Positions 5,748 through 22,917 of a DNA stretch of 64,000 nt are shown one piece after another. The translations under genes and the position numbers were made by a program. Source of the DNA: Bacillota bacterium (GTDB lineage Bacteria; Bacillota; Dethiobacteria; DTU022); the NCBI GenBank assembly GCA_034189085.1, contig JAXHVH010000003.1:45094-109093 (forward strand), read 5' to 3'. The notes beneath the pieces are model-generated. The model did not search any database. It was not told the DNA's origin and saw nothing but the letters and a program-made list of their open reading frames with translations. How positions within the stretch are numbered: the first letter of the stretch is position 1; each line of letters starts with the position of its first letter.

Positions 5748-5863
5748 TAGGCTTGACAACAGCTGCTCTTTTATCAACCGATGGCTGCTGTTTATAAAGT
5801 CTGTTATTCTATTTCTCAACCTGTAAGGTGCTTGCGGTATATTATTCCGGAGGAGGTGACCCG

Positions 5864-7084
5864 GTGAAGGTTAACCGGAGTATTGAGGAAATTAATGCAA
5901 AAATAAAGAAAGGAAAAGCAGTAGTCCTGACAGCGGAAGAAGTAACAGATCTGGTTGAACAAAAAGGCAGCACAGAAGCGGCGGCATCAGTTGATGTGGT
6001 TACAACAGGAACATTTGGGCCCATGTGTTCCTCCGGGGTATTTCTCAATGTGGGGCATTCAAGCCCCCGTATTAAGCTGACTGAAGCTTATTTAAACGGT
6101 GTCCCGGCCTATGCCGGGATTGCGGCCGTTGATCTCTACCTGGGAGCAACAGCTCTTCCGGCAGCCGATCCAGCTAATCGTAATTATCCGGGAGAATTTC
6201 TGTATGGAGGCGGGCATGTGATTGAAGATCTGGTTTCCGGGAAGGAAGTCCGCTTTGAAGGTTTTTCTTATGGCACAGATTGCTATCCCCGGAGAAAAGT
6301 TGATACGACCATCCGCCTTGATGAAATAAATGAGGCTACACTATTTAATCCGCGCAATGCCTATCAAAACTACAATGTGGCCGTCAACAAGGGCAAGAAA
6401 ACGATTTATACTTACATGGGTGTGTTGAAACCCAATCTTGGTAATGCCTATTACAGCACCGCCGGTCAATTGAGCCCGCTTTTCAATGATCCCTACCTCA
6501 AGACAATCGGGTTGGGAACGCGCATTTTCCTGGGCGGAGGTATTGGTTACATAGCCTGGCATGGAACACAGCATAATCCTTCCGCAGCACGAACTGATAA
6601 CGGAATCCCGCGTGATCCAGCCGGGACCCTCGCCCTGATTGGTGATTTAAAACAGATGAATGCTCGCTGGCTGAGGGGGCTCAGCTTCCTTGGTTACGGG
6701 GCTACCCTGCAGGTGGGTCTCGGCATTCCAATTCCCATTCTGAATGAAGAGATCATGAAGTACTGTGCCGTCCGCGATGAAGAGATCATTGCCCCGGTGA
6801 TGGATTACTACAAGGACTATCCCAACCTGAAAGGTGGAAATCTTGGCTATGTAAATTATGCCGAGTTGAAAAGTGGATTAATTAATTTGCAGGGGCAAAA
6901 GATTCCCACTGCTTCTCTATCCAGTTATGCCGGGGCGCGGGAGATCGCCCTGATCTTAAAAGAATGGATTGGAAGCGGTCGGTTTTTGCTTACCGAACCT
7001 TCGGCACAGCTCCCTTCGGCGGAAGATAATATCGTTTTAAAATCGATGCCCCGGAAGGATCCGGAGAAGCGGGAGGATGAATAA
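5864..7084 (+). CDS. Homocysteine biosynthesis protein / L-aspartate semialdehyde sulfurtransferase (DUF39, MA1821/MJ0100-like)
   Basis: RSIEEINAKIKKGKAVVLTAEE, VDVVTTGTFGPMCSSG, YGTDCYPR motifs; GTG 5864 after GGAGG; no C-terminal CBS pair visible. Confidence 0.88.
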   Translation: MKVNRSIEEINAKIKKGKAVVLTAEEVTDLVEQKGSTEAAASVDVVTTGTFGPMCSSGVFLNVGHSSPRIKLTEAYLNGVPAYAGIAAVDLYLGATALPAADPANRNYPGEFLYGGGHVIEDLVSGKEVRFEGFSYGTDCYPRRKVDTTIRLDEINEATLFNPRNAYQNYNVAVNKGKKTIYTYMGVLKPNLGNAYYSTAGQLSPLFNDPYLKTIGLGTRIFLGGGIGYIAWHGTQHNPSAARTDNGIPRDPAGTLALIGDLKQMNARWLRGLSFLGYGATLQVGLGIPIPILNEEIMKYCAVRDEEIIAPVMDYYKDYPNLKGGNLGYVNYAELKSGLINLQGQKIPTASLSSYAGAREIALILKEWIGSGRFLLTEPSAQLPSAEDNIVLKSMPRKDPEKREDE

Positions 7085-7509
7085 TGGTTAAACAAAAAAT
7101 TGTGCTTCGCTTCCCACCGAACGTAGTTGAACAGCCAATCATTTACATGATGATCAAAGATTTTGACCTGATGGTTAATATTTTACGTGCCGACATCAAT
7201 CCCCGCAAGGAAGGGCGCCTGATGATGGAGGTAAATGGTGAAAATGCCGATTATCAGAAGGCGATGGCCTGGCTGAAGGAGCAGGGGTTGATCATTACCA
7301 ACCTGGAACAACAGATAATCTGGCGGGAGGATCGTTGTACCCACTGCGGTGCCTGCACCGTGATCTGTCCTACAAGAGCGCTTTACTTCGAACGGCCGTC
7401 GATGAATGTTCGTTTTGACCAGGATAAATGCATAGTCTGCGAACTTTGCCTGCGGGCCTGTCCGGCCAGGGCGATGGAAACACCGATCGACAACACCCTC
7501 TTCAGATGA
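7084..7509 (+). CDS. NIL-domain 2x[4Fe-4S] ferredoxin (MA1822/MJ0099-like)
   Basis: N-terminal NIL domain (MVNILRADI) plus CTHCGACTVICP and CIVCELCLRACP; coupled to the DUF39 gene. Confidence 0.9.
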   Translation: MVKQKIVLRFPPNVVEQPIIYMMIKDFDLMVNILRADINPRKEGRLMMEVNGENADYQKAMAWLKEQGLIITNLEQQIIWREDRCTHCGACTVICPTRALYFERPSMNVRFDQDKCIVCELCLRACPARAMETPIDNTLFR

Positions 7510-8954: not shown

Positions 8955-9030
8955 GCCGGCATAGCTCAATTGGTAGAGCAGCTGAATCGTAATCAGCATG
9001 TTGGGGGTTCAAGTCCTCTTGCCGGCTCCA
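8955..9030 (+). tRNA. tRNA-Thr(CGT)
   Basis: GCCGGCA/TGCCGGC acceptor stem, D-arm TAGCTCAATTGGTAGAGC, anticodon arm GCTGA-ATCGTAA-TCAGC, GTTCAAGTC T-loop, discriminator T, encoded CCA. Confidence 0.95.
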
Positions 9031-9043
9031 CACATTAAAGAGC

Positions 9044-9077
9044 AAAGTGGTCTGGATCTAAGATCCAGGCCACTTTT
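9044..9077 (+). terminator. Rho-independent terminator after tRNA-Thr
   Basis: AAAGTGGTCTGGATCT / AGATCCAGGCCACTTT inverted repeat followed by T-run. Confidence 0.75.
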
Positions 9078-9085
9078 GTAATTAA

Positions 9086-9215
9086 TTACCCCCGGCGTGA
9101 GCATTCCCTGAAGCAGAGTATCAATTATAGGTCTGGCAGTAGGTATCTACTGGGTGAAATGCAACCATGTCCGCCGCGAGGCGGAATCTGAGGAACGAGC
9201 AGGTGCGATCGCTTG
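9086..9215 (+). mobile_element. Possible degenerate 5' (domain I) remnant of a group IIC intron
   Basis: TTACCCCCGGCGTGAGC resembles the IIC 5' end GTRCGCCCGGCATGGG; GCAACCATGTCCGCCGCGAGGCGGAATCTGAGGAAC resembles IIC GCAAGGGTGTCCG...GCGGAATCTGAAGGAAG; lies just after a terminator. Recognised from memory only; no RT ORF. Confidence 0.35.
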
Positions 9216-9363
9216 TGCTTACGCTTACAAGTTATGTGTTTGTGCCATAATTAAATAAAGGAAACAGAGTGGCACAGAATAAAAAACTTCGAGCAAAATC
9301 CTCAATTTAAAGCCAGCAAATTAATTTACCAAAACACACCACAAACCCAATAAATCCACTATC

Positions 9364-9411
9364 TATTGCATTCTGTTATAGATAGTATTAGTTTTTGCAA
9401 AAAGGACTGTT
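9364..9411 (+). promoter_or_regulatory. Promoter/operator repeat copy 1, upstream of flavoprotein module 1
   Basis: 41/48 nt identical to 17564-17611; TTGCAT-17bp-TAGTTT plus palindrome TTTTTGCAAAAA. Confidence 0.65.
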
Positions 9412-9700
9412 CCTTTCGGTTCAGAATTAAACAATTAAATATGCAGTAAGATAAAGCACCCGCTATGTTCGCAAAAATTATCGAACCGAACGTGCTCTTA
9501 ATTCCAAAATGGGTGTATTTTTAAGCTACAAATGTATATTGATATATTTTATATATTAAATTGTTCACCCATGAAAGGGTTTATCTTGCATAAATTATTT
9601 ACGGCAAATAGCACTCTCCATTTATTTAGCCTCACAAAATATTTGTTCTCATTAGAAGCGGTTTCATTGCTCAGACACTGGAAGGAGAGAACTTAACTTA

Positions 9701-11356
9701 ATGAAAGAAGAATTCAAAACATGCGATGTACTTGTAGTCGGCGGCGGAGTAGCAGGAATGATGGCTGCCATAAGGGCTGCAGAAGGAGGAGCCAAAGTTA
9801 TTGTTGCGGAAAAAGCGAACACTATTCGAAGTGGTTCTGCCATGATGGGAGTTGATCATTTCCGCAGTTATATACCAGAATACCACGGTGATTTTAGCGA
9901 ATTTAAAAAAGCGTTGGGAAAGGGCCAGGATGCTGCTTCTTTTGCAACGAAAAGCACCGAGTATCTGAAAACGGTATTTGAAAATTCGGCATTGCTGGTA
10001 AAAAAATGGGAAGAATGGGGTATCCCCATTAAATATCATGGGAAGTACCATTTTGCAGGGCACACGTTTCCGGGCGATGATCCCAAAATGGGCGGATGGC
10101 TTAAAATTTCTGGAATGAATATTAAGCCGGTTCTTACAGAGCAAAGCTTGAACCGTAGTGTGGAAATAGTAAATCGGGTGATGGTTTTTGACCTGCTGAA
10201 AAATAAAGATAATAAAGTGGTCGGGGCTATGGCTTTACACACGAGAGAAAATATAATGGTCATTTTTGAGGCTAATGCAGTTATTTTATCTACCGGTTGT
10301 GTAACAGGCCTGTATCCCAATCCTACTCGAGCAGGTTATTTCAACACCTGCTATCCTTTTTTACATTCCGGCGATGGAAGAATTATGGCTTATAGAGCGG
10401 GAGCTGAACTGGCAGATTTAGAATTGACCAGGCGTCACGCGGGGCCGAAATATTTAATCAAGGCCGGGCAAGCGTCATGGGTTGGGGTTTTAAGAGATCG
10501 CGAAGGCAACACGGTTGGACCCTTTCTGGATAAGCCTGATGCGCGTTATGGTGATATGACTGTCGAAGTTAATAAGGAGATTTTTGAGGAATACAGGAAC
10601 CAGGGTAAAGGTCCGATTTACATGGATATGAGTGGTATTACGGATAAAGATTATGAAGAGATGCTTCATTACTTAAGCAATCAATCCGGCACTGCCTTTT
10701 TGGAACACTTTAAACAAACGGGTGTCAATCTCAGGAATGCCGCTGTTGAATTTACCACTTTTGAACACGCTGTATCCAACGGGATCCAGTTCAATCACAG
10801 GGGTGAAACTGGAGTTAATGGTCTCTATGCCGCAGGGGATGAAAGCCGTGGAGGCCTTGGTTTGGCGGCAACCATTGGTTGGAAAACGGGAGAGCATGTA
10901 GCTGAATCTGTTAGATCAATCAGTTCACCAGGTATCAGTGGAGCGGAATCTCTAATTGATGATAGCATTAGACTGGTTAAAGATATAAGAACCCGGGAAG
11001 TGGGTGCCTGCTGGCAAGAAGCCTATGCTGTTCTTCAACAAATTACCAATGATTATTGCGGTTCTGTGCGTTCACAATCAATTTTGGAGGCAGGATTGGA
11101 TTTCCTTGAGAAAATGAAGATCCGGACCAGAGACACCCTAAAAGCAAATGATGCGCATGAGTTAATGTATTGTATGCAGGCTTTGAACTTAATGGATCTT
11201 GCTGAATTATTATTTGTTGCTGCGCTTGATAGAAAAGAGACGAGGGCGTTGCATAAACGGCCGGACTACCCACTGACAAATCCACTGTTAACCGGCAAGA
11301 AACATATTATCAAACAAAAGAATGGCACACCGGTTACAGAGTGGCGTAATGTATAA
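9701..11356 (+). CDS. FAD-dependent oxidoreductase, AprA-like (SDH/FRD/APS-reductase flavoprotein superfamily), copy 1
   Basis: DVLVVGGGVAG dinucleotide fold; EKANTIRSG resembles AprA EKAxxxRSG; GLYAAGD; C-terminal RKETRALHKRPDYP. Confidence 0.85.
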   Translation: MKEEFKTCDVLVVGGGVAGMMAAIRAAEGGAKVIVAEKANTIRSGSAMMGVDHFRSYIPEYHGDFSEFKKALGKGQDAASFATKSTEYLKTVFENSALLVKKWEEWGIPIKYHGKYHFAGHTFPGDDPKMGGWLKISGMNIKPVLTEQSLNRSVEIVNRVMVFDLLKNKDNKVVGAMALHTRENIMVIFEANAVILSTGCVTGLYPNPTRAGYFNTCYPFLHSGDGRIMAYRAGAELADLELTRRHAGPKYLIKAGQASWVGVLRDREGNTVGPFLDKPDARYGDMTVEVNKEIFEEYRNQGKGPIYMDMSGITDKDYEEMLHYLSNQSGTAFLEHFKQTGVNLRNAAVEFTTFEHAVSNGIQFNHRGETGVNGLYAAGDESRGGLGLAATIGWKTGEHVAESVRSISSPGISGAESLIDDSIRLVKDIRTREVGACWQEAYAVLQQITNDYCGSVRSQSILEAGLDFLEKMKIRTRDTLKANDAHELMYCMQALNLMDLAELLFVAALDRKETRALHKRPDYPLTNPLLTGKKHIIKQKNGTPVTEWRNV

Positions 11357-11408
11357 AGAGAAAAATACTGATAATCAGGGTGTTAAAGGTTAGGAGGAGA
11401 TGTTTGTT

Positions 11409-11636
11409 ATGCCCCCGGTTATTAATACTAAATTATGTGATGGTTGTACAGGCAGGGAATACCAGATTTGTGTTGAGCACTGTCCATTTGATGTTTTTAA
11501 AAGTACGGAGATAGGGAAGCCGCCGTTAATTGCCAGGCCAAATGAATGCTGGTATGAGAATGCCTGTGTAATGGATTGTCCAAAGAGGGCCATAAATTTA
11601 CGGATCCCTTTACCAATGCATATCGTGGTGAAATAA
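11409..11636 (+). CDS. AprB-like ferredoxin, copy 1
   Basis: MPPVINTKLCDGCTGREYQICVEHCP mirrors AprB CDGCxxxxxTACxxxCP; second motif CWYENACVMDCP; SD AGGAGG favours ATG 11409 over 11400. Confidence 0.85.
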   Translation: MPPVINTKLCDGCTGREYQICVEHCPFDVFKSTEIGKPPLIARPNECWYENACVMDCPKRAINLRIPLPMHIVVK

Positions 11637-11878
11637 CGCTTCTCGAAAAATTAACGACCCGGTTATGGCTTCATTCTTTTTGGGCAAGAAGTTATATGAA
11701 AATCATTTTTCTTCACCGCCTGATAAGGAGCTGTAACTAGAGTCGCGACTTGGAAGGCTGATTATGCGCATTATAACGAAGAGGGATTAGAAGGTAATCT
11801 ATGTAAGGAGGTGTTCATCACCCCGCTACAAGCAAAATTGCTTTATTATGCATCAAAAAACTTGAGGAGGTATTTATT

Positions 11879-12919
11879 ATGAAGAAACGATTTTTGCTAA
11901 CATCCCTAATCCTTATTGTAGTTGCTGTGTTTGTGTTTACTTTAGGATGTGGGGGGACTGAAGAAAGTGTGGAAGAACCTGCAGAGGAATCTGCAGAAGA
12001 ATCTGCAGAAGAATCTTCCGAAGAGGTTACAGAAGAAGCAGGGGTTGACTTCCCGGAATCAGGCAGGGAGATACTCCAGTTGTGCCCGTTTGGTGCCGGC
12101 GGCGGTTTTGATACAACAGCACGCTATTTTGCGCAGCACCTTACAGAGGACCTGGGAGTTCCGGTAATCACGGAGAATAGAACTGGATCCGGTGGAATTA
12201 TCCCGTTGCTGGACATGCAGAAAACAGAACCGGATGGTTACACCCTGACATTTGTAGCCAGGGCTACTCACCCGCCGCAGCAAGCACTTCATGGTGCAGA
12301 TATTAGATTGGAAGATCTTACCTACATCGCTGGTGTCAAAGAAATTCCATATGTTTTATGTGTAAGTAAAGATTCAGATATTGAGACGTTAGATGATTTA
12401 AAAAATAAAGATTCCGTTGTTTTAGGCACCTCCGGTTCAGGGCATATCAGTGAAATAAGTGCTCATCAACTGGCCGACACTTTTGGCTTTGAGCTAAAGA
12501 AAATACCTTATGATGGGTTAGCTGCAGTAGGTGCCGCCATATTGTCCGGTGAAGTTGATATGGCTTTCTTAAGCGGGACTATCATTGAATCGCATAAAGA
12601 CAATTTAAGACTCCTGGCCATATTCACAGAGGAAAGATCAGATTACTTTGATGTCCCCACCATTGGAGAGCTGGGATATGATTTGTTTTTACCTGTTGAA
12701 ACAATGGGTTATGTCGGACCTCCAGGCATGGATGATGAAGTAGTGGAAATCCTGAGAAGCGCCTTAGAAAATGTCGTCAACAAAGAAGAAACACAGGAGT
12801 GGGCAGCAAGTTTAAAAGAAATAGTTAAGTATATCCCACCGGAGGAAGTGAAGGCGAGCAACCTGGAAGTTATAGAAATTTGTACTGAATATAAAGACTT
12901 GTTAATGGGAAGCGAATAA
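11879..12919 (+). CDS. tctC: Tripartite tricarboxylate transporter substrate-binding protein (TctC/Bug family), lipoprotein
   Basis: PFGAGGGFDTTAR, ENRTGSGG, DGYTL, PYDG motifs; lipobox LGC followed by acidic linker. Confidence 0.88.
   Translation: MKKRFLLTSLILIVVAVFVFTLGCGGTEESVEEPAEESAEESAEESSEEVTEEAGVDFPESGREILQLCPFGAGGGFDTTARYFAQHLTEDLGVPVITENRTGSGGIIPLLDMQKTEPDGYTLTFVARATHPPQQALHGADIRLEDLTYIAGVKEIPYVLCVSKDSDIETLDDLKNKDSVVLGTSGSGHISEISAHQLADTFGFELKKIPYDGLAAVGAAILSGEVDMAFLSGTIIESHKDNLRLLAIFTEERSDYFDVPTIGELGYDLFLPVETMGYVGPPGMDDEVVEILRSALENVVNKEETQEWAASLKEIVKYIPPEEVKASNLEVIEICTEYKDLLMGSE
11981..12016 (+). repeat. Three tandem copies of a 12-nt unit (GCAGARGAATCT, encoding AEES)
   Basis: gcagaggaatct gcagaagaatct gcagaagaatct in the TctC linker. 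Confidence 0.85.
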
Positions 12920-12945
12920 ACTAACCACAGGTTGCTGAACAAGTA

Positions 12946-13020
12946 AAATAGAGGGAATAATGAATACAGCATGAGACAGCCATTCAGCACATATAGAACA
13001 ATCCATTGTTCCCTCTATTT
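12946..13020 (+). other. Long-loop intergenic inverted repeat after tctC
   Basis: AAATAGAGGGAATAATG pairs with CATTGTTCCCTCTATTT (17 bp, one G-U pair). Confidence 0.6.
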
Positions 13021-13282
13021 CTTAAATATTTTATTGAAATATCTATTGCCGGTTGGGATTTCTTACCTGTTTTGCTGATCTAAATAAAGAGAATTGATTA
13101 TCGTGTAAACAGGGGGAAGGGTGAAAGATACATCCCCGGCGTTTAATTTTTGATATGAGCCTGGGCAGCGGGCGAATATTGTTTTACTGGATTGCTTGGC
13201 AGCTACATTATAACTGTCATGGGGAGAAAAGCTTTAAATTATTATTGTATTGCACATATCCTTTACCAAAGGAGAATGTAAT

Positions 13283-13747
13283 TTGACAAAGCAAAATATT
13301 CTGGGTGAATTAATTTTAAAATTAATATTGTTAATTTATGGTTTATATTATTTTATCGAGACAATAACCATGGACATATCCTATAATGCCAGGATATATC
13401 CCTTTATCATCAGCCTGGCTTTTAATATTTTAATGATCATGTTAACCTCGGAGGTATTCAAAAAATATTTGGAACAAGCGAAAAACGACAGGCAATCCTT
13501 CAAAATTATTACTCCGGAAGCAATAAAACTATTCAGTACTTATGCAGCAGGAATCTTATTAATAGCTTTAACATTACTGGTCAATTATTGGCTTGCCATT
13601 ATTGTCGCGTTGCCTCTATTGGCATATGTCTTGGAAGACAAGAAGTTTTCGCTTATTTCCTATGTGTTTCTTCCCGTGGGGATGATCATAATAGTCTATA
13701 TTATTTTTGTCAGGTTTTTAAGTGTAAGGTTGCCAGTTGGGTTCTAA
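13283..13747 (+). CDS. tctB: Tripartite tricarboxylate transporter small membrane subunit (TctB family)
   Basis: Four hydrophobic helices, ARIYP motif, C-terminal FVRFLSVRLPVG; between tctC and tctA; TTG 13283 after AAGGAG. Confidence 0.78.
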   Translation: MTKQNILGELILKLILLIYGLYYFIETITMDISYNARIYPFIISLAFNILMIMLTSEVFKKYLEQAKNDRQSFKIITPEAIKLFSTYAAGILLIALTLLVNYWLAIIVALPLLAYVLEDKKFSLISYVFLPVGMIIIVYIIFVRFLSVRLPVGF

Positions 13748-13835
13748 AGGATTTACCAGTATTTCTGGCATGAGTATGATTATATAAAAAGCTAAAGATT
13801 GTCATACATTTAATATGAAAGGAAATTTATGCCAT

Positions 13836-15308
13836 ATGGAGTATATCGAAGTAGGGATTTTTCTCTGGGTTGTCGTTGGACTGTTAATCGGTATTTTGGT
13901 TGGGGTTTTGCCCGGTTTGGGCGCCGCCACCGCTTTATCCCTCCTTGTGCCCCTGACCTACAAAATGGATACAAATATCGCTATCGCTTTTATTATGGGC
14001 GTTTTTGTAGGGGCAGTATATGGCAGTTCAATTACTTCTATTTTATTGAATATTCCGGGATCGGCAACATCTGTAGCCACGATGTTTGATGGGTATCCCT
14101 TAACGGTTAAAGGTTATTCTTTGACAGCACTTGGTGCATCGATTACCTCTTCTTCAATAGGTGGGATAGCCGGAGCTTTATTTCTGATGTTTGTTAGCCG
14201 CTACATTGCCAATTTTTTTATGCATAACATGGATTCACCGTCTTATTTTTGGATCATTATGATTGCCCTTTCCTGTCTTATTACAGCTATAGGGAAAGAT
14301 CGTACCATTGGGTTTGCATCAGCTTTGTTCGGGCTGATGGTTGGCACGATCGGGATGGATATGATGTCCTTTAATTATCGATATAATTTTGGCAGTTTTT
14401 ACATGGGTGATGGTATACCTATGGTTCCTTTAATATTGGGAATCTACGCATTATCCCATATCATGACATTATCCCAAAGAGAAGTGGGCGAATCCATATC
14501 GAAAAGCGTGCAAATGCATGGCAGTTTATGGGAAGGGGCCAAGCAAACTCTTATTAATTGGGTCCTGGTCATAAGATCCATTATTATTGGTGCAGTAATC
14601 GGTGTCTTCCCGGGGATAGGAGGGGCCACTGCTAATTTAGTTGCTTACTATAATGCTAAAAGCAAATATAACCAGGATGATACATTTGGTAAAGGTGATA
14701 TTCGGGGTGTAATTGCTGCTGAAGCATGCAATAATGCAACGGTGGCATCAACTTTAGTCCCAACATTTACACTGGGAATTCCGGGTGGAATCCCAGCGGC
14801 GATTCTTTTAAGTATACTTATGATTCACGGGTTGACGCCCGGGCCTACTTTGTTTACTGAGAATGTAGATTTTGTTAATCAGACCTTTGTAACTGTTTTA
14901 ATTGCCAATCTTATACTGTTCCCCATTGCTATTTTAACCCTCAGATTCTTTGCCAGAATCACGACGGTGAAAATAAGCATCTTGGTACCATTCCTATTGG
15001 TTTTTGTTGTTTATGGAGTTTATGGGCTGCAGCGGTCCCTTTATGATGTGATCATAGTATTTGTTTTTGGGTTGATCGGTTATTTATTTAATAAATACAA
15101 TATACCAATTGTCCCATTTCTCATATCTTATCTGTTAGGCCCTATGTTTGAAGTAAGTTTGAGGAGATCATTAAGAGCTGGCGATGATATTTTCATCCTG
15201 GTATCAAAGCCTTTTCACATTGTTCTGGCCATCATAGCCCTTTTGCTTATTGTTGGGCCGCCACTTTACAATTTATTTGTTAAAAAACCGTTAATAAAGC
15301 AAGCTTGA
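13836..15308 (+). CDS. tctA: Tripartite tricarboxylate transporter large membrane subunit (TctA family)
   Basis: GVLPGLG, NIPGSATSVATMFDGYP, AAEACNNA, PTFTLGIPG, HGLTPGP motifs. Confidence 0.93.
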   Translation: MEYIEVGIFLWVVVGLLIGILVGVLPGLGAATALSLLVPLTYKMDTNIAIAFIMGVFVGAVYGSSITSILLNIPGSATSVATMFDGYPLTVKGYSLTALGASITSSSIGGIAGALFLMFVSRYIANFFMHNMDSPSYFWIIMIALSCLITAIGKDRTIGFASALFGLMVGTIGMDMMSFNYRYNFGSFYMGDGIPMVPLILGIYALSHIMTLSQREVGESISKSVQMHGSLWEGAKQTLINWVLVIRSIIIGAVIGVFPGIGGATANLVAYYNAKSKYNQDDTFGKGDIRGVIAAEACNNATVASTLVPTFTLGIPGGIPAAILLSILMIHGLTPGPTLFTENVDFVNQTFVTVLIANLILFPIAILTLRFFARITTVKISILVPFLLVFVVYGVYGLQRSLYDVIIVFVFGLIGYLFNKYNIPIVPFLISYLLGPMFEVSLRRSLRAGDDIFILVSKPFHIVLAIIALLLIVGPPLYNLFVKKPLIKQA

Positions 15309-15367
15309 AATTGTGATAATGGATGGCCAGCCACAATACTAAACAGGACTGGGAGGTTAATATCATA

Positions 15368-16066
15368 TTGAGAAAAAATATTGAACTTGTCAATAAACTT
15401 GTCCAGTCGTGCCATATACTCTCAATGGAGGGGCACAATGATATTATTCTGGGCCATGTAAGCGCGCGTATTCCCGAATCGGAAAGTGCGTTAATTAAAT
15501 CAAGCGGGAAAGCCCTGTGGGAAGTTACACCAGATGATGTTATCGCTATTGACTTCGAGGGCACTATAATCGACGGAAATAAAAAGTGTCATAAAGAATA
15601 CCCGATTCATACAGAAGTATACCGTCTCCGGGATGAAATCAATTGTGTTATTCATACTCATCCTTTTTATAGTACCATCATTTCTGCTGCTGGCATAAGC
15701 ATTAAGCCGGTTAGTAACGAAGGAACCATTTTTTTAGACACGCCAATATTTACAGATACTACAGAGTTAATCCAAACTTCTGAACAAGGTGTAGCAGTGG
15801 CAAAGAAGATGGGGAATAATTATGCGCTGCTGTTGCAAAATCATGGGATAGTTGTGGCGGGGAGAACTATAGAGGAGGCCACAATTTTTGCTGTAAGGTT
15901 AGAAAAGGCAGCCAGGGCACAGTATTTCATAGAAGCGCTTGGATCCTACAACTACACCAATGAAGATGAATGCAAGAGAAAAATTGAGCAAACATATGAT
16001 CACAAGCAGATCCAGAATTTTTGGGATTATTATTTAAGAAAATTAAATACCGGGAGATTCACTTAA
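15368..16066 (+). CDS. Class II aldolase/adducin family protein (aldolase, epimerase or decarboxylase)
   Basis: GHVSARIP, E-x-PIH, VIHTHP, LLQNHG metal ligands; TTG 15368 after GGGAGG (ORF track start 15323). Confidence 0.88.
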   Translation: MRKNIELVNKLVQSCHILSMEGHNDIILGHVSARIPESESALIKSSGKALWEVTPDDVIAIDFEGTIIDGNKKCHKEYPIHTEVYRLRDEINCVIHTHPFYSTIISAAGISIKPVSNEGTIFLDTPIFTDTTELIQTSEQGVAVAKKMGNNYALLLQNHGIVVAGRTIEEATIFAVRLEKAARAQYFIEALGSYNYTNEDECKRKIEQTYDHKQIQNFWDYYLRKLNTGRFT

Positions 16067-16218
16067 GATGAGTGATTTCCGTTACTCGATGAATCCAATT
16101 GTTATTATGATAGGCATAAAATAAATGGCGCAGGGTAGACTTTGTCAAATCCAAAGAGGTCAGGATTGGTAATATTCTAGAATTACGCATTAATATTTTA
16201 AATAAAGGATGGTATTTA

Positions 16219-16323
16219 ATGGATAAGCCAAGGTTTTCAATGGAAGAAGATTATTTTGCATGTTTACTATCAGCAATTATAGTTATTCTTTGCATGATTG
16301 GAATTTTCCCAAGTTTACCCTAA
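16219..16323 (+). CDS. Small membrane peptide, 34 aa (MDKPRFSMEEDYFACLLSAIIVILCMIGIFPSLP), absent from the ORF track
   Basis: SD-like AAAGGATGG upstream, single hydrophobic helix, 59 nt before the YeiH gene. Confidence 0.55.
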   Translation: MDKPRFSMEEDYFACLLSAIIVILCMIGIFPSLP

Positions 16324-16382
16324 ATTAAATATTTCTATATTGGCAGTTGCTAATTTATGGAGTTAGACAAGGAGATGCAGCT

Positions 16383-17429
16383 ATGGCGAAATTACCTCCA
16401 CAGAAATACAATAGTTGGTCACAGTATTTTTTAAACATACTGCCGGGTTTCTTGCTGGCACTGGTGGGAGCTGTTTTCGTTTGGTCCCTGGTAAGCGTGA
16501 CGCCGCCGAGCTGGCCGGTTAATTATGTCCTTTATTCTATAGTCCTGGGGATGGTTTTGAGGAACGTTGTAAAACTTCCTGTTATTTTTAAGGAAGGCCT
16601 GGGATTTTCAGCTAAGATTCTCTTATTCATGGGTGTTATATTTTTAGGTGGGACAATAGATATTTCAGTTATTATTGCTACCGGTCCACATGCTATAATC
16701 CTTGCAATTATAGCGGTCACTTCAATGATTACACTTTCTTATGTGTTGGGCAGGTTTATTGGACTGCCGGAAGATTCTAAAGCACTGCTGGGCATTGGAA
16801 TGGGCGTATGCGGAGTATCAGCAATTGTTGCGTTAACCCCGGTTATCAAGGCTAAAGAAAGATACATATTAACTGCGATTGTTGCTTCTTTGTTAAACAG
16901 TGTCATCCTTCTTTTTACAATTCCTATCCTGGTTCACTGGATTTCTATGCCAGAGTTACTGGCTGGCTATTGGAGCGGGGCAATATCATCCAACACAGCG
17001 CAGGCAATTGCTACCGGCTTTGCTATTGGTGAAGAAGCAGGAACAATAGCAACGATCACCAAAACAGCTCGTAATGCTTTAATGGCATTTGCCATCCTTT
17101 ATTTTGCCTATTCATACACACGAAAAGGATTACCCATTGGAGTGAAGCTGCGACCTTTATTGATCTGGGAAAAATTCCCTAAATTTATTTTTGGCTTGAT
17201 AATTATGTCACTATTATCGACATTTGGTTTGTTCACAGCGGAAGTGATGGCACAGTTTAAAGATCTTTCGCGGTGGTTTTTTATGATCTGTTTTGTGGGA
17301 ATGGGTTATGAAATTAGTTTTCGTGATTTTAAATTAAATGATTTTAAACCTGTTTTATTTGGTCTATTTTTATCGCTGATTCTGGCAGTAGTTGCCTATC
17401 TTTATATTAATCTGTTTATTCATGTATAG
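16383..17429 (+). CDS. YeiH / putative sulfate exporter (PSE, UPF0324) family membrane protein
   Basis: GMGVCGVSAIVA, TITKTARNAL, FPKFIFG motifs; ~10 TM helices; ATG 16383 after AAGGAG; ends in TAG. Confidence 0.85.
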   Translation: MAKLPPQKYNSWSQYFLNILPGFLLALVGAVFVWSLVSVTPPSWPVNYVLYSIVLGMVLRNVVKLPVIFKEGLGFSAKILLFMGVIFLGGTIDISVIIATGPHAIILAIIAVTSMITLSYVLGRFIGLPEDSKALLGIGMGVCGVSAIVALTPVIKAKERYILTAIVASLLNSVILLFTIPILVHWISMPELLAGYWSGAISSNTAQAIATGFAIGEEAGTIATITKTARNALMAFAILYFAYSYTRKGLPIGVKLRPLLIWEKFPKFIFGLIIMSLLSTFGLFTAEVMAQFKDLSRWFFMICFVGMGYEISFRDFKLNDFKPVLFGLFLSLILAVVAYLYINLFIHV

Positions 17430-17563
17430 CAGCATCAAGGATTGAGGCTACGCTAACAAAATTCATGAAGTATAGACGTAGATTATCTGATACTTACTCA
17501 TTTTTACTGCCGGGCGGGTTTTTACAAACCGGGTAATGCCAGCAAACCATGCAATCAGTCGAT

Positions 17564-17611
17564 TATTGAATTGTGTTATAACTGGTATTACTTTTTGCAA
17601 AAAGGATTGTT
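17564..17611 (+). promoter_or_regulatory. Promoter/operator repeat copy 2, upstream of flavoprotein module 2
   Basis: 41/48 nt identical to 9364-9411; TTGAAT-17bp-TACTTT plus TTTTTGCAAAAA. Confidence 0.65.
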
Positions 17612-17722
17612 GTTTATTTTTTAGAAGTAAATATCAGTTTAAACGAAAGTCCCAAAATAGGCAAAGATACAAAATTGATAAATATAGTACTCAAATATAT
17701 AAATCAGCAGGAGGTTTGTGCA

Positions 17723-17935
17723 ATGATTAAAGAGATTGATCATTCTGGATGTATCAAGTGCGGATTATGTGCCAAATTTTGCCCCGGCAATGTTATCTCA
17801 ATGAATCCATCAGATGGATTGCCTTATATAGAGCACCCTGATGATTGCTGGAATTGTTTCAATTGTGAGCTTATCTGCCCGGTTAATGTCATTTATGTAG
17901 GGCCCTACAGGAAAGAAAAGCCTCTGGCATGGTAA
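17723..17935 (+). CDS. 2x[4Fe-4S] ferredoxin, AprB-like, copy 2
   Basis: CIKCGLCAKFCP and CWNCFNCELICP; ATG 17723 after GGAGG. Confidence 0.9.
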   Translation: MIKEIDHSGCIKCGLCAKFCPGNVISMNPSDGLPYIEHPDDCWNCFNCELICPVNVIYVGPYRKEKPLAW

Positions 17936-17985
17936 GCAAAAAACTATGGATAATAAATAATTACATAAAACGGAGGAACCAATAA

Positions 17986-19671
17986 ATGAATGAACAAGAA
18001 ACCATTGTCAGGAATAATGAATTCATAACCCATATCAGTGACGTACTGGTAATTGGGGGGGGTTTCTCGGGATTATGGGCTGCTCTGAAAGTTAAGGAAA
18101 ATAATGATCTTTCAGTGAATTTGGTCGATAAAGGGTTTTGTGGATCCACCAGCCATTCATTTTTTTCAGGAGGTGGAATGGTTGTTTTAATGCCGGATGA
18201 TGACCTGGATGAATGGGTGGAAGACATAGCAAATTCGAATGAAGGCATAGCAGACAGGAAAGTTTTAAGATCAATCCTGGAGAATTCACAGGCCAGGATG
18301 AGAGATTACGAAACAATGGGAGTTACTTTCCCACGGAGGGATGGTGAGTACAAACGCATCCGTTCCCGTGGTGCAAAAAAGATAAAGCTGCTTGGTTCTG
18401 CTGAGGGTGGAGGTAAAGCAATAGTTTTAGCTCTTCACAAAGAAGCGTTAAAACGGGGAATAAACATAAAGAACAGGATATTTATTATTGACATACTGGT
18501 AAATGAGCAAGGGCAGGCAGGAGGAGCCCTCGGTATAGATATCAATGATGGCAGTTTTCATGTTTTCAGAGCAAAGGCAACGGTAATAGCCACAAATAGT
18601 GGCAGTTTCAGGGGGCACCATTTAGCCAGTGATCAGCAGGGCACCGGGGTATTTGCTGCTTTTAATAAAGGAGCAAAGCTTCAGAACGCTGAATTCCACT
18701 ACATCAATGTCCGTCCGAATAAGTTTGAAATTGAAGGATCTGGAGTATTGCCTAAATTTGGCGCTCGCTGGGCCAATGCGGATGGGGAGTATTTTATGGA
18801 TAAATATGACCCCGATCTTAAAGATCATGCCCCGAATCATACTATACTGGTTGCAATGGCCAAGGAGGCCAAAGCTGGAAAAGCCCCTTTAGGGTTTGAT
18901 ACACCATCTTTTGCTGAAGAAGGGCGTGTCGGTTTTCGTGAAATGATGATGGGGCACGGATGGATGAAGCTTATTTATAACAAGCTAAGAAATGAAGGCG
19001 TGGATTTTTTACGGGACAAGATTGAGTGGAATGCTGCTTACGAAACAAACAGGGTTGGCCTGAAGACGGATTTTGGTGGAAAAGCCTCAGGTATTGAAGG
19101 TTTATTTGCCGCCGGTATGGCTCGCGCGTTTATCCCGAATACTTTAACCGGCTTGTCCATTGCTTATAGCACCTGGTCCGGATATATGGCTGGAGAAACT
19201 GTTGCTAAATACGTCAATGATGTGGAAATGCCTGAAATCGATATGCAGCAGATTCTTTCAGCGCAGGATAGTTTTGTAGAACCGCTCTACAGGGCGGGAG
19301 ACACAACACCGGACAAAGTCGTTGAGGAGTTACAAAAGGTTATTTTCCCTGCTGACGTACTGATTTTAATCACTCATGATAAATTACAGGATGCTCTTAA
19401 TAATGTTGAAAATATCAGGGATAATATTGAAAGTAAAATGGCTGCCAGCAGCATCCATGATCTGATTAAAGTTAGAGAAACCGAAACCATGATTCTATCT
19501 GCAGAGATGACCTTACGAGCCTCCATGCTGCGCAAAGAATCAAGGCCCTTTATTTATTACAGGGAAGATTACAATGAAAGAGATGATCAGAATTGGTTAC
19601 AATGGATAGTTGTTAAAAAGGACGAAAGTGGCTTTTCATTCAGCACTGAAAAAATTCCCAATGATGGTTAG
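17986..19671 (+). CDS. FAD-dependent oxidoreductase, AprA-like, copy 2
   Basis: DVLVIGGGFSG, GLFAAG; C-terminal RKESRPFIYYREDY...DDQNW resembles AprA RxESRxPGxYYRxDY...W; ends in TAG. Confidence 0.83.
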   Translation: MNEQETIVRNNEFITHISDVLVIGGGFSGLWAALKVKENNDLSVNLVDKGFCGSTSHSFFSGGGMVVLMPDDDLDEWVEDIANSNEGIADRKVLRSILENSQARMRDYETMGVTFPRRDGEYKRIRSRGAKKIKLLGSAEGGGKAIVLALHKEALKRGINIKNRIFIIDILVNEQGQAGGALGIDINDGSFHVFRAKATVIATNSGSFRGHHLASDQQGTGVFAAFNKGAKLQNAEFHYINVRPNKFEIEGSGVLPKFGARWANADGEYFMDKYDPDLKDHAPNHTILVAMAKEAKAGKAPLGFDTPSFAEEGRVGFREMMMGHGWMKLIYNKLRNEGVDFLRDKIEWNAAYETNRVGLKTDFGGKASGIEGLFAAGMARAFIPNTLTGLSIAYSTWSGYMAGETVAKYVNDVEMPEIDMQQILSAQDSFVEPLYRAGDTTPDKVVEELQKVIFPADVLILITHDKLQDALNNVENIRDNIESKMAASSIHDLIKVRETETMILSAEMTLRASMLRKESRPFIYYREDYNERDDQNWLQWIVVKKDESGFSFSTEKIPNDG

Positions 19672-20016: not shown

Positions 20017-21411
20017 GTGGAAAAGCACTTTACCAGGATGGGAGACGGGTCGGGCATCTACATGAGCAAGGAAGAGATTCGTGCCGACCTGGCAGATGGA
20101 ACAACCGATGCCGCCGACCGGGGTAAAATTCCTCCCCTCTCTGCGGAGGAGCTGGATTATCTTTATGAAATAGTAGCAACACCGGTCAATATCGTCAGTG
20201 TTGCCCGGGGCAAGGAAACTGTTACTTCTTCAGATTCAGGGGCGTTTAAAATCAATTACCAGGCCGATATCTCCCTTGATCGGGCTATTTCGATCCAGGT
20301 GCATGAAAAGGTTCTCGCCGCTGATTCGCTTGACCTGGGGAACATCGACTACAGCTACAAGTCGGTCAAGGCTATTCTCCATGATGAAGCCAAAGTTATG
20401 GAAAATGTCCAGATGAATACGATCATGCCGGTGCTCTATGGAGCCATGCCAAATCTGGGCTTGTATACAAAGCCTGACGGCCCGGTTGACAACTGGTCTG
20501 AACTGCTTCCCAGGGCAAAGATTGCTGAAGCGAGACAGGCACAGGAAGAAGCTGTCGAGCTGGCGGTCAAAGATATGGTTTACATAGCCGAAGGAATGTA
20601 TAAGGCTGGAGCGGACGGGATGAATTTTGATACCTGCGGTGCTTCGGGAGATGCTGATTTTCTGGCTGCTCTTGAAGCGGTAAAAATAATCAGGGGAAAA
20701 TATCCGGGCTTCGGCATGGAAATGGGAATGGCCGGAGAATTCATTCTTGGTATGCACGGGCAGCTGGAGTACGAAGGTACCAGGCTGGCTGGTTTATACC
20801 CTCATAAACAGGTTAAAATAGCCGAGCAAGCAGGGGTAACCATTTTCGGGCCGGTTGTTAATACCAGCAGCAATCGCTCGTTTCCCTGGAACCTGGCCCG
20901 CGCTGTTACGTTTGTCAAAGCGTGCTGTGAAGCAGCCGATATAGCGGTCCATGTTAATGTGGGTATGGGAGTAGGAGCTACCCCCATGACACCCGTTCCG
21001 CCGGCTGATGCTGTCTCCAGGGCTTCCAAGGCTTTGATTGAAATCGGCAAGGCCGACGGTTTATAGGTGGGTTCCGGTGATCCTTTCGGCAATGAAGCGA
21101 CTCAGGAAGTGGCTTCCGGGATGGGTGGCATTCGCACAGCCGGAGATCTGGTCATGAGAATGCAGTTGTCCCGGGGTTTAAAAATAGAAGCGGCCAAAAA
21201 ATATGTCGCTGAAAAATTGGGCGTTGCAATGGCGGAGCTGAGTGATTGTTCAGTCATGCGTGAAGTAAGGCAGAACCTGGGGCTGGGCTATCCCATGCCT
21301 GATCCGGGAGCAGCCAAAGGCATCGGGGCCAAGATTCGGATAGCCGAAATCATGGGCCTAAAAATAAACTCCGTTGAACAGTTCAAGAAGAAAACGGGAC
21401 TGCATTATTAA
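20017..21411 (+). CDS. mtbB: Dimethylamine:corrinoid methyltransferase with in-frame amber (pyrrolysine) codon at 21064-21066
   Basis: TRMGDG, YGAMPNLGLY, NFDTCGASGD, GMAGEFILGMHG, WNLARAVTF, then KADGL-TAG-VGSGDP, matching MtbB GVDGI-O-IGVGDP; the joined frame gives 464 aa. Confidence 0.95.
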
Positions 21412-21432
21412 TCTATGAAAGAAGGTGGAAAA

Positions 21433-22917
21433 ATGAAGAGGAACCCCATAGCCGGAAGAAACTCTTTTATGGGCTGCGGTCTGAATCTATTCAGCGATTC
21501 AGATCTGGAGATGATTCATGACGCTACGCTGGAGGTGCTGGAATACGCCGGCCTCTATGTCCAGAGCGATGAGGCAATGGATATTTTTGACGGGGGAGGC
21601 TGTATAGTAGACAAGAAAGAGAAAAATGTAAAAATACCCGCCCACATCGTCGAAGAGGCTATCACTTCGGCACCGAAGAAAATATTCCTTGCCGGACGGG
21701 ATCCAAAGCATGATCTGGTCCTTGAAAACGGACGGGTCAACTTTTGTCCTTTCGGTGAAGGCGTAATGGTAATCGATCCCTACAGTGGTGAATACCGCAA
21801 GTCAACCAAGGCTGATAAGGGAAATGTGGCCAGGCTGGTTGACGCTCTGGATCAGTACGACATGCTGGAGAACACTGTGGCGCCGCGCGATGTTCACCCG
21901 GAAATGGAAAGCCTGCATAACTATGAAGTAACTGTCTCCAATACTACGAAACACGTCCCTCAGCCCTGTCATGACAGGCGCTCCGCCCAGCTGCTCATCG
22001 AAATGGCGGCAGCTGTGGCCGGAGGGAAGGAAAACCTTAAAGATAGGCCCATCGTTTCCGGGTGTACCTGTCCCCAGAGCCCCCTGACTATTTCTGCAGG
22101 GTGCGGCGAGCCGATTATCGAATATGCCCGGGCTAATCTGCCCCAGAATATTCTTTCCATGGCCATGGCCGGGGCTACATCGCCGGTCACCCTGGCGGGG
22201 ACGCTGGTAACCCATAACGCAGAGGTACTCGGGGGCATTGTTCTGGCCCAGTTGACCAGGAAGGGCGCGCCGGTGATGTACGGCAGTTCAACGACTATGA
22301 TTGATATGAGACAGGCGACGGCTACGGTCGGCTGCCCCGAGCTGGGATTAATAAGTGCCGCTGTGGCCATACTGGCCCGTTACTATCTGCTGCCCAGCTA
22401 TGTTGCCGGTACTTAGGGCGATAGCAAGGTTTCAGATGCTCAGTCCGGCCATGAAAAAACCCTGACTTCCCTGCTGCCGGCATTGGCAGGTGCCAATATG
22501 ATCTACGGCGGGGGGATGCTGGAGATGGGTTTGACCATGAGCTTTGGACAACTGGTTATGGATAATGAGATCATTGCTATGACCAGGAAAGTTCTTGAGG
22601 GGATCCCGGTTAACGACGAGTCTCTAGCGGTTGATGTAATTAAAAACGTGGGTGCCCGGGGTCACTTCCTGGCTGAAGAGCATACCTACAGGCACATGCG
22701 AGAGCTTTCGGAAAGCAGGTTAATCGATCGCCGGATGCGGCAATTCTGGACTGACAGCGGATCCAAAGATCTTACCCGGACCTGTGATGAAAAGGCAAGA
22801 GAAATATTGGAAAATCACCGCCCGGAACCGCTGCCTGACCAGGTTCATAAAAAGATTTTGTCAATTATCAGGGAAAGGGAAGAAGAACTGGGCATAAAAT
22901 CCCCGGCTAATGAATAA
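21433..22917 (+). CDS. mttB: Trimethylamine:corrinoid methyltransferase with in-frame amber (pyrrolysine) codon at 22414-22416
   Basis: MAMAGATSPVTLAGTLVTHNAEVL, GAPVMYGSSTT, LPSYVAGT-TAG-GDSKVSDAQSGHEKTLT...AGANMIYGGGMLE; reads through into the ORF-track fragment 22483-22917. Confidence 0.95.

Follow-up and report, generated by a model that had tools for sequence, protein, structure and literature searches.

What is accomplished by a gene cluster in which two divergent flavoproteins, each paired with a small ferredoxin of its own, bracket an organic-acid importer, an aldolase-fold enzyme and a putative exporter? The question is raised by an island of about 10 kb in an uncultured Bacillota bacterium (assembly GCA_034189085.1), which lies within a 64-kb stretch of contig JAXHVH010000003.1 (positions 45,094 to 109,093) that we refer to as the window, numbering positions from its first letter. 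An initial annotation had described nine genes here, arranged as a flavoprotein-ferredoxin pair (A1-B1), the importer genes tctCBA, a class II aldolase gene, a YeiH-type gene and a ferredoxin-flavoprotein pair (B2-A2), and had suspected an anaerobic organosulfur pathway. The list of open reading frames (ORFs), together with Pfam and NCBIfam scans, bears out this content and the A-B, then B-A, bracket, with all nine genes on the + strand where that annotation had placed them. We argue that the region is a horizontally acquired catabolic island forming one functional unit, and that what is new in it is two active sites and the conserved operon joining them, whereas the scaffold and the subunit logic are already known from AprAB and the reductase of 3'-phosphoadenosine 5'-phosphosulfate (PAPS). 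As for its function, the reading that we rank first, although it falls somewhat short of an even chance, is that a sulfo-substituted carboxylate is imported, processed by redox and lyase chemistry and relieved of sulfite, which is then exported, all of this by a route other than the AprA mechanism.

A1 (9701..11356, + strand) and A2 (17986..19671, + strand) encode flavin adenine dinucleotide (FAD) flavoproteins of 551 and 561 amino acids (aa), respectively, both with the Pfam domains FAD_binding_2 and Succ_DH_flav_C, both devoid of a signal peptide and both with the FAD fold beginning within the first 25 residues. Sharing 22% identity, they belong to two large unnamed clades of the AprA/fumarate reductase superfamily, the A1 clade being the one nearest the alpha subunits of PAPS and adenosine 5'-phosphosulfate (APS) reductases. 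Among the scored candidates there are more than 1600 homologues of A1 and more than 360 of A2, with top identities of 67-68%, and they are labelled only “FAD-binding protein” or, automatically, “succinate dehydrogenase/fumarate reductase”. Every curated family model in NCBIfam is missed at least threefold by both proteins: against the AprA models TIGR02061 (cut-off 641.75) and NF005331 (cut-off 557), A1 scores 93.5 and 178.6 and A2 scores 81.6 and 125; the best scores with fumarate reductase or succinate dehydrogenase (Frd/Sdh) models are 204.9 versus 587 for A1 (NF006131, a PRK08275-type “fumarate reductase”) and 184.7 versus 567.3 for A2 (TIGR01812, sdhA_frdA); and the L-aspartate oxidase (NadB) model TIGR00551 gives 113 for A1 and 110 for A2 versus a cut-off of 452.75.

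The structural comparisons place the two proteins differently. A profile of the A1 family finds the PAPS reductase of M. thermolithotrophicus (8a8o_A) as its best match in the PDB, at 208 bits, ahead of A. fulgidus AprA (148 bits, with most of the alignment in the N-terminal half), FrdA (122) and NadB (107), and the AlphaFold2 (AF2) model of A1, with a predicted local distance difference test (pLDDT) score of 86, superposes best on the same structure, with a template modelling (TM) score of 0.85, such that sequence and fold agree on the closest relative. The A2 family profile gives 151 bits with PAPS reductase, which is also the best match of A2 by E-value, 144 with M. smegmatis SdhA and 128 with FrdA, while the A2 model (pLDDT 84) fits SdhA/FrdA best, with a TM score of up to 0.84 versus 0.76 to 8a8o_A. 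Two further leads were dropped: the 6-hydroxynicotinate reductase of Eubacterium barkeri, considered as a characterized relative, was absent among the best 25 NCBIfam matches, and the benzene-activation “Magic” cluster proved unrelated.

The active sites were compared in an alignment of the window proteins and five members per family with E. coli K-12 FrdA, SdhA and NadB and with the 8A8O PAPS reductase. The AprA set of Asn74, Trp234, Arg265 and His398 (A. fulgidus numbering) is incomplete in both families: the Asn74 column is variable (R55 in A1, V66 in A2), at the Trp234 position A1 has C217 and A2 a gap, His398 falls in a five-residue segment (HGQAG) that is missing from both, and Arg265, the counterpart of Arg237 in PAPS reductase, is an invariant Arg in the A2 family (R243 in A2) and a Gly in A1. 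Compared with 8A8O, to which they are 23-24% identical, the window proteins lack the catalytic-His segment and the flavin-adjacent Asn and Trp, A1 lacking the catalytic Arg as well. The flavin N5-sulfite adduct of AprA, to which the initial annotation had appealed, is thereby left unsupported, with three of the four residues absent from both families and the Arg265 equivalent left only in A2; its view of the flavoproteins as non-canonical is upheld, since both scores and residues put them outside bona fide AprA.

These residues bear equally on the possibility that the two pairs are divergent but genuine APS/PAPS reductases serving sulfate reduction or assimilation, which we regard as extremely improbable. 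A PAPS reductase is indeed the closest solved structure to A1, and the B subunits resemble the AprB core; however, the scores lie far under the AprA and AprB cut-offs, Asn74, Trp234 and His398 are missing, and sat, qmo, dsr and cysC are absent among the other ORFs scanned in the window, as had been noticed earlier for the first three. The “AprAB-like” clade found beside sat and cys genes is a different one, being PAPS-reductase-like (PMC8477390), with the AprA catalytic residues kept and sulfate-assimilation genes adjacent (PMC10322725, PMC8477390), whereas the context in the window and in related loci consists of organic-acid importers and lyases, not of sat, cysC or asr.

With E. coli FrdA/SdhA and NadB, A1 and A2 share the overall fold (TM 0.80-0.84), and each family has a histidine in common with them. 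The covalent-FAD (8-alpha-N3-histidyl) position of Sdh/Frd is an invariant His in the A2 family (H57), the attachment itself being predicted only, and is not a His in the A1 family, which retains His232 of FrdA instead. In E. coli FrdA numbering, Arg287, Arg390 and the Thr244/Glu245 loop are kept in neither family. The A1 family has Glu for Arg287 and His or Met for His355, with Arg390 and Thr244/Glu245 absent; the A2 family has Asn for His232, Asn, Val or Thr for Arg287, an invariant Glu for His355 and Thr, Met, Pro or Ser for Arg390. The NadB set of Arg290, His351 and Arg386, which occupies the same columns as that of FrdA, is not matched either. That A1 and A2 might simply be conventional soluble enzymes of the fumarate reductase, succinate dehydrogenase or L-aspartate oxidase type is what their Pfam domains, the automatic names of their homologues and the covalent-FAD His of A2 would suggest, yet we consider this very unlikely, as the curated models are missed by so wide a margin, the dicarboxylate-binding and proton-shuttle residues are wanting, the partner is a ferredoxin of 70-78 aa and not a three-cluster FrdB/SdhB subunit, and a membrane anchor is absent. 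On the strength of scores far under the curated cut-offs and of the loss of most defining active-site residues, we reject A1 and A2 as APS/PAPS reductases, fumarate reductases and aspartate oxidases; they represent two new active sites on a known scaffold, each family having a separate set of invariant polar residues. Among the invariant residues, D52, H53, H62, H121, R182 and R227 in A1 and H211, H212, H238, R243, H324 and E353 in A2 are candidates for lining the pocket above the flavin N5.

The subunit logic of the pairs is more familiar. B1 (11400..11636, + strand) is a di-cluster ferredoxin of 78 aa with an AprB core and 7 Cys, and B2 (17723..17935, + strand) is a 2x[4Fe-4S] ferredoxin of 70 aa, also with an AprB core, with 8 Cys and matches to Pfam Fer4 families; the B2 ORF spans 17675-17935, its likely start being the ATG at 17723 behind a GGAGG. 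In gene order A1-B1 and then B2-A2, each flavoprotein is paired with its own ferredoxin, and the two ferredoxins are about 30% identical over 43 residues. Against the AprB model TIGR02060 (cut-off 135.65), which gives B1 its best NCBIfam match, B1 scores 40.7 bits over positions 1-65 of 132 and B2 scores 34.0 bits over positions 11-73 of 132. Both retain the Cys-Trp found ahead of the flavin in proteins of the AprB type and both lack the C-terminal tail with which AprB wraps AprA. The island thus shares with the M. thermolithotrophicus PAPS reductase the combination of an FAD subunit of the fumarate reductase superfamily and a short 2x[4Fe-4S] ferredoxin with Cys-Trp, and with dissimilatory AprAB (1JNR/2FJA) the same superfamily, the same subunit logic and a recognizable ferredoxin core; it departs from the latter in that AprA aligns well over the N-terminal half only, the ferredoxins span 70-78 aa against a 132-position model, A1 and A2 lack the full signature residues, and the window lacks qmo and sat.

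This pairing is kept in related loci from metagenomes, metagenome-assembled genomes (MAGs) and genomes, which were compared with the window and are designated here by L-numbers; in the GC-rich ones, genes were called with a filter on GC content at third codon positions (GC3), as longest-ORF calling gave antisense artefacts. A B1 homologue always follows the A1 homologue in the A1-family loci examined, and every A2 homologue for which upstream sequence is available is immediately preceded by a B2 homologue. The B2-type partners retain all eight Cys. In all seven B1-type proteins aligned (the window protein and those of L002, L003, L004, L087, L088 and L089), the second CxxCxxCxxxCP motif has lost its middle Cys, which has become Glu in six of them, including the window B1, and Gly in one. 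From this replacement we predict that the A1 family is set apart by ferredoxins with a [3Fe-4S] cluster or with one that has a carboxylate ligand.

Is the gene set as a whole a unit, or have its members met by chance? Its order recurs in a deltaproteobacterial MAG (L012), which carries A1 (49% identity), B1 (47%), TctC, TctA, aldolase (40%), B2 (49%) and A2 (45%) homologues in the window order without YeiH. The A1 and A2 homologues of this locus (9938-11610 and 16200-17922) each appear to be split over two reading frames, which indicates assembly errors or pseudogenes. Fifteen further A2-family loci from metagenomes and MAGs have as neighbours TAXI-type tripartite ATP-independent periplasmic (TAXI-TRAP) importers in 7, TctC in 7 (TctA in 5, TctB in 5), and a class II aldolase and a small response regulator, each found in 5, and B2-A2 stands with an importer of either the TAXI-TRAP or the tripartite tricarboxylate transporter (TTT) type in 14 of the 15. 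The aldolase recurs in two more loci, L091 (B2-A2-aldolase-DASS transporter-YeiH) and L092 (TAXI-TRAP-B-A-aldolase-B2-A2), and in total the combination of B2-A2 with a solute-binding-protein importer, often with a class II aldolase, is found in more than 20 loci from several phyla. In the A1-family loci, A-B is followed by a TRAP, TAXI or TTT importer, with Amidohydro_2 as a frequent companion and with UbiD and an enolase-superfamily protein once each.

Side observations accompany these loci. A single-domain response regulator of about 160 aa, with no counterpart in the window, lies directly 3' of the A2 homologue in five Desulfobacterota-type loci (L092 11739-12230, L095 11695-12150, L117 11775-12266, L119 4899-5390 and L121 6086-6583). 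In L095 (2862-4556) and L117 (4583-6283), a gene whose product has about 565 aa and weakly matches ferredoxins stands beside a second flavoprotein where the short B subunit is expected, and may encode a fused or alternative electron-transfer partner. Four A-B pairs occur within about 20 kb in Moorella sulfitireducens (L087) and three in Desulfitobacterium dichloroeliminans (L088; CP003344, 1515576-1537216), with TRAP, DASS and major facilitator superfamily (MFS) transporters between them and LysR or Crp/Fnr regulators on the flanks; these arrays look like batteries of alternative organic-anion oxidoreductases.

The composition of the island points the same way as this synteny. Its GC content is 40.0% against 48.6% in the rest of the window, and GC3 lies between 0.35 and 0.41 in all nine genes, against 0.44-0.59 in flanking genes. 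Moreover, a 68-nt direct repeat (family D1, 78% identity) occurs on the + strand upstream of A1 (9364..9431) and again 92-159 nt upstream of B2 (17564..17631). Its 27-nt core, GTATTAnTTTTTGCAAAAAGGAyTGTT (9385-9411 and 17585-17611), contains the 12-bp palindrome TTTTTGCAAAAA and occurs exactly twice in the 64 kb, with zero expected, only upstream of A1 and of B2; it was found in none of 141 related loci. The repeat or its core is a candidate shared operator or promoter element, and the presence of one core before both A-B units suggests that they are co-regulated. A sigma-54 promoter in the repeat was considered and rejected as non-canonical, the spacing being GG-N11-GC and copy 1 having AG; RpoN is encoded in the window (55008-56453), and the island has no enhancer-binding protein.

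That the genes merely came to lie side by side as the island was assembled, without working together, is an explanation to which we give very little credence. It can draw on the absence of a regulator gene inside the island and on the gaps of 240-330 bp that separate some of the genes, but the order is kept in L012, sub-modules recur in more than 20 loci of several phyla, and the shared element precedes both A-B units. Given the uniformly low GC3 of the nine genes and the same order in an unrelated phylum, the arrangement is not due to chance, and the gene set is a real functional unit. The co-occurrence that the initial annotation had called for is thus found, and its impression that the combination matches no described pathway stands as well: a literature search on AprA-like enzymes in sulfonate metabolism, flavoenzyme desulfonation and this gene combination found neither the two active sites nor the cluster, conserved across phyla as it is, described, and yielded only the remark that D. 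hafniense DCB-2 encodes 19 “fumarate reductase paralogs ... of unidentified substrates” (PMC3306737). The A1-family protein of D. dichloroeliminans, 49% identical and set in the array of three A-B pairs, is reminiscent of these paralogs, for which the genome paper gives no function, partner or pathway.

TctC (11879..12919, + strand; PF03401, 112.8 bits versus a gathering score of 27), TctB (13250..13747, + strand; PF07331, 32.7 versus 29.1) and TctA (13815..15308, + strand; PF01970, 413.5 versus 28.9) are adjacent and each above the gathering score, which identifies them as the solute-binding protein, the small membrane subunit and the large membrane subunit of a TTT system. The binding protein carries the LGC lipobox of a lipoprotein signal as well as an acidic linker, features that fit a monoderm host, and its relatives in the PDB are the Bug, TctC, TphC and AdpC binding proteins.

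The class II aldolase/adducin-fold metalloenzyme (15323..16066, + strand; PF00596, 147.1 versus 22.2) would be a lyase or decarboxylase; its true start is probably about 15 codons downstream of the ORF start, as the called product has 232 aa elsewhere. It stays under all the NCBIfam equivalog cut-offs compared (PhtC 96.6/200, FucA 87.8/264, MtnB 78.4/226, AraD 64/389 and OtnC 62.9/250), and its homologues carry only automatic sugar-phosphate names. The His triad for the metal (HxH...H) is intact, with IHTHP and QNHG aligning with the metal histidines of solved relatives. By comparison with FucA, we presume which Glu is catalytic and take a His-Lys pair to occupy the phosphate-binding positions. 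The fold is known for aldol cleavage, epimerization, dehydration and aromatic decarboxylation.

The YeiH/PSE membrane protein (16347..17429, + strand, with a likely start at ATG 16383; PF03601, 194.9 versus 24.5) is a putative exporter of the sulfite/sulfate type. The sulfolactate cluster SlcHFG-SlcC-ComC-SuyAB-SuyZ likewise combines a TTT importer with a PF03601/PSE exporter, a likeness to the island that does not extend to its catalysts, since the window has no homologue of SuyAB, SlcC or ComC and the catalytic genes of the island are instead those for A1B1 and A2B2, both flavin/Fe-S pairs, and for the aldolase-fold enzyme of class II. Recent work has shown that Salmonella depends on yeiH to resist sulfite stress (2026, PMC12880088) and that Bordetella needs the gene to tolerate sulfite and to detoxify cysteine (2026, bioRxiv 10.64898/2026.04.22.720190).

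Exporters of this kind gather around the closest relatives of both flavoproteins. Of the four nearest A2 relatives examined, three (L090, L141 and L091) have YeiH flanking the A2 homologue, at differing positions and with differing importer types: L090 reads YeiH-LysR-A'-B'-B2-A2, with identities to the window proteins of 68% for A2, 71% for B2 and 83% for YeiH; L141 (A2 49%) reads B-A-TAXI-TRAP-B2-A2-YeiH; and the A2 homologue of L091 is 48% identical. In the fourth, L140 (A2 53%), the contig ends at the gene; this locus carries an SsuA-like binding protein under its cut-off. Near the A1 homologue, TauE or YeiH is found in two of the three nearest relatives examined, as a TauE-family gene in L002 (A1 63%) and as YeiH followed by an SsuA-like ATP-binding cassette (ABC) system in L004 (A1 55%). 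Two apparent links to sulfur nearby were rejected: the LysR of L090 is only 23% identical to the sulfite sensor YeiE, a generic level within the LysR family, and a gene of the radical S-adenosylmethionine (SAM)/SPASM type in L004 matches best, below cut-off, a maturase of tungsten-cofactor oxidoreductases and not an anaerobic sulfatase maturase. In total, YeiH occurs in roughly 4 of about 23 informative A2 loci, where about 0.1 would be expected if about one such gene per genome is assumed, by our own estimate rather than a computed statistic. In a neighbour-joining tree without bootstrap, the YeiH-associated loci and the window branch at the base, with the loci lacking YeiH forming the crown. 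Identity is only 31-32% among the YeiH proteins encoded in the window, in L091 and in L004, and their positions differ, which suggests repeated recruitment.

We rank a sulfo-carboxylate and sulfite export first because YeiH, TauE and SsuA-like genes converge around the closest relatives of A1 as well as those of A2, and because characterized enzymes of the same architecture release sulfite; to our knowledge, the only characterized enzymes built as such A-B pairs are sulfite-releasing ones. The suspicion of sulfite or sulfonate chemistry voiced in the initial annotation gains from these neighbours and from the recent evidence on yeiH, whereas YeiH as a core component of the pathway is not supported: about 80% of the related loci have no sulfite-type exporter, YeiH or TauE, the constant partners being carboxylate-type importers and enzymes of the decarboxylase or lyase type, and YeiH is accessory. 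Many hosts of the exporter-less loci are labelled as members of groups known for sulfite reduction, namely Desulfitobacterium, Moorella sulfitireducens, Desulfovibrio, Mailhella and Desulfatiglandales; such hosts could consume the sulfite themselves, and the patchy occurrence of the exporter would thereby be accounted for.

Several observations weigh against sulfite release, beginning with this rarity of exporters and with the incomplete AprA residue set of both families. The window YeiH itself scores 90.2 against the cut-off of 232.6 of TIGR00698 and is 28% identical to E. coli YeiH, and the SsuA-like matches score below their cut-off. Neither SuyAB, CuyA, Xsc or a glycyl-radical sulfolyase (IslA/HpsG) nor a sulfite reductase is encoded in the island or in the related loci read. 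TTT, TRAP and DASS importers mostly carry plain carboxylates, and we know of no role in sulfonate pathways for the class II aldolase, Amidohydro_2 or UbiD families, which fit the decarboxylation of hydroxy-aromatic acids.

These points lend substance to an alternative in which the same operon logic serves a sulfur-free substrate, namely a hydroxy-aromatic, N-heteroaromatic or unsaturated polycarboxylate. The flavoenzymes would then reduce a C=C bond or, in part, a ring, the aldolase-fold enzyme would decarboxylate or cleave, and YeiH would export another anion or be only loosely associated. Carboxylate-type importers (TTT, TRAP, TAXI-TRAP and DASS) are constant neighbours across both flavoprotein families, and three families that decarboxylate aromatic acids recur, namely the class II aldolase (with its sub-threshold PhtC-like match), Amidohydro_2 and UbiD, while a molybdenum enzyme of the xanthine dehydrogenase type follows the TTT genes in L108. 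The flavoproteins themselves are compatible with such a substrate, A2 by its covalent-FAD His and a fold closest to SdhA/FrdA, A1 by the His aligned with FrdA His232, and the Desulfitobacterium and Moorella arrays beside Crp/Fnr or LysR genes resemble reductases of alternative organic electron acceptors. What a sulfur-free substrate leaves unexplained is the presence of two unrelated exporter families, YeiH and TauE, and of SsuA-like proteins near the closest relatives of A1 and A2; in addition, Arg287 and Arg390, the dicarboxylate-binding residues of the Frd/Sdh/NadB enzymes, are missing from both families. An aromatic or dicarboxylate substrate had already been named as a second option in the initial annotation. 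Because most loci lack the exporter while carboxylate importers and decarboxylases are constant, this option remains nearly as likely as the sulfo-carboxylate reading.

Under the sulfo-carboxylate reading, the lipoprotein TctC and the TctBA membrane subunits would import an organic anion bearing at least one carboxylate. The cytoplasmic, soluble alpha-beta flavoenzymes A1B1 and A2B2, of AprAB/PAPS-reductase architecture, would act on its carbon skeleton, with electrons passing from a low-potential donor to the two Fe-S clusters in B, then to the conserved Trp, to the FAD in A and finally to the substrate. The aldolase-fold enzyme, of Zn/Mn type, would carry out a C-C cleavage, a decarboxylation or a beta-elimination, and YeiH would export the small toxic anion set free during breakdown. 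As A1 and A2 have no AprA active site, any release of sulfite needs a different catalytic solution; sulfite might leave by elimination or reduction at carbon and not through the canonical AMP-sulfate/N5 adduct route. The gene content, cofactor motifs, pairing, synteny and co-occurrence are observed; the direction of electron flow, the order of the steps, the class of substrate and the release of sulfite we infer from them.

The surroundings of the island are of another kind. Upstream, it is bounded by a tRNA-Thr(CGU) gene (8955..9030, + strand; ARAGORN and Rfam), directly after which GC drops to 0.40 from about 0.49. The tRNA is separated from the repeat element by about 300 bp of non-coding sequence (9045-9360), in which a short stretch at about 9165-9215 is GC-rich, unlike the remainder of the island; this spacer may be left over from the insertion junction. 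A repeat search of the window detected no att-type copy of the tRNA at the opposite end of the island, and no integrase was found. Just upstream (5828-7509), a HcyBio gene (homocysteine biosynthesis, sulfur incorporation) is followed by a NIL-domain ferredoxin gene; this sulfur-assimilation pair does not share the low GC of the island and probably has nothing to do with it.

Directly downstream, pyrrolysine-type methylamine methyltransferase genes follow, mtbB for dimethylamine (20017-21411) and mttB for trimethylamine (21415-22917), each with a single in-frame stop at the pyrrolysine position and each overlapped by an Rfam element (PYLIS_2, 21064-21163, and PYLIS_3, 22414-22513), a constellation that, judged from sequence, indicates pyrrolysine use in this uncultured Bacillota. 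The other window ORFs with a Pfam match are housekeeping genes or belong to methylamine metabolism, the former including V/A-ATPase, glycolysis, metK behind a SAM riboswitch (S-box), secA, uvrABC, rpoN and RNase R, besides a transfer-messenger RNA (tmRNA) gene found with Rfam; four other ORFs have no Pfam match at the thresholds used. The tmRNA gene and the S-box mark the host as a bacterium, and its GAPDH groups, at 90% identity or more, with proteins labelled “Firmicutes bacterium ML8_F2” or “Bacillota bacterium”.

The significance of the island extends beyond this genome. Both clades, with at least several hundred to more than 1000 homologues each, are found in anaerobes from sediments, groundwater and guts, and their members have been annotated as “fumarate reductase” for about twenty years, with a substrate never assigned. 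The island and its syntenic copy in another phylum represent a compact, testable unit of importer, two alpha-beta enzymes, lyase and exporter, and if it were solved, a function could be given to many “dark” redox enzymes of anaerobes. If the sulfo-carboxylate reading is true, the island encodes an oxygen-independent organosulfur pathway that is based neither on glycyl-radical enzymes nor on SuyAB. A broader proposal, which we hold only tentatively and think rather unlikely, is that A2B2, and perhaps A1B1, would define a new class of oxygen-independent flavin/Fe-S enzymes, not activated by radical SAM proteins, that cleave C-S or O-S bonds, either reductively or by elimination, and thereby set sulfite free from sulfo-carboxylates or organic sulfate esters, the “fumarate reductase paralogs” of Desulfitobacterium, Moorella, Desulfobacterota and Chloroflexota being a reservoir of such organic-anion reductases. 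Such a class would give anaerobes a route to organosulfur carbon and sulfite apart from SuyAB, CuyA, Xsc and the glycyl-radical sulfolyases. Should sulfite prove to be the product, the sulfur cycle would gain a new desulfonation mechanism and a new source of sulfite and H2S; should it not, the island would most likely represent a ferredoxin-linked route for the reduction of aromatic or unsaturated acids.

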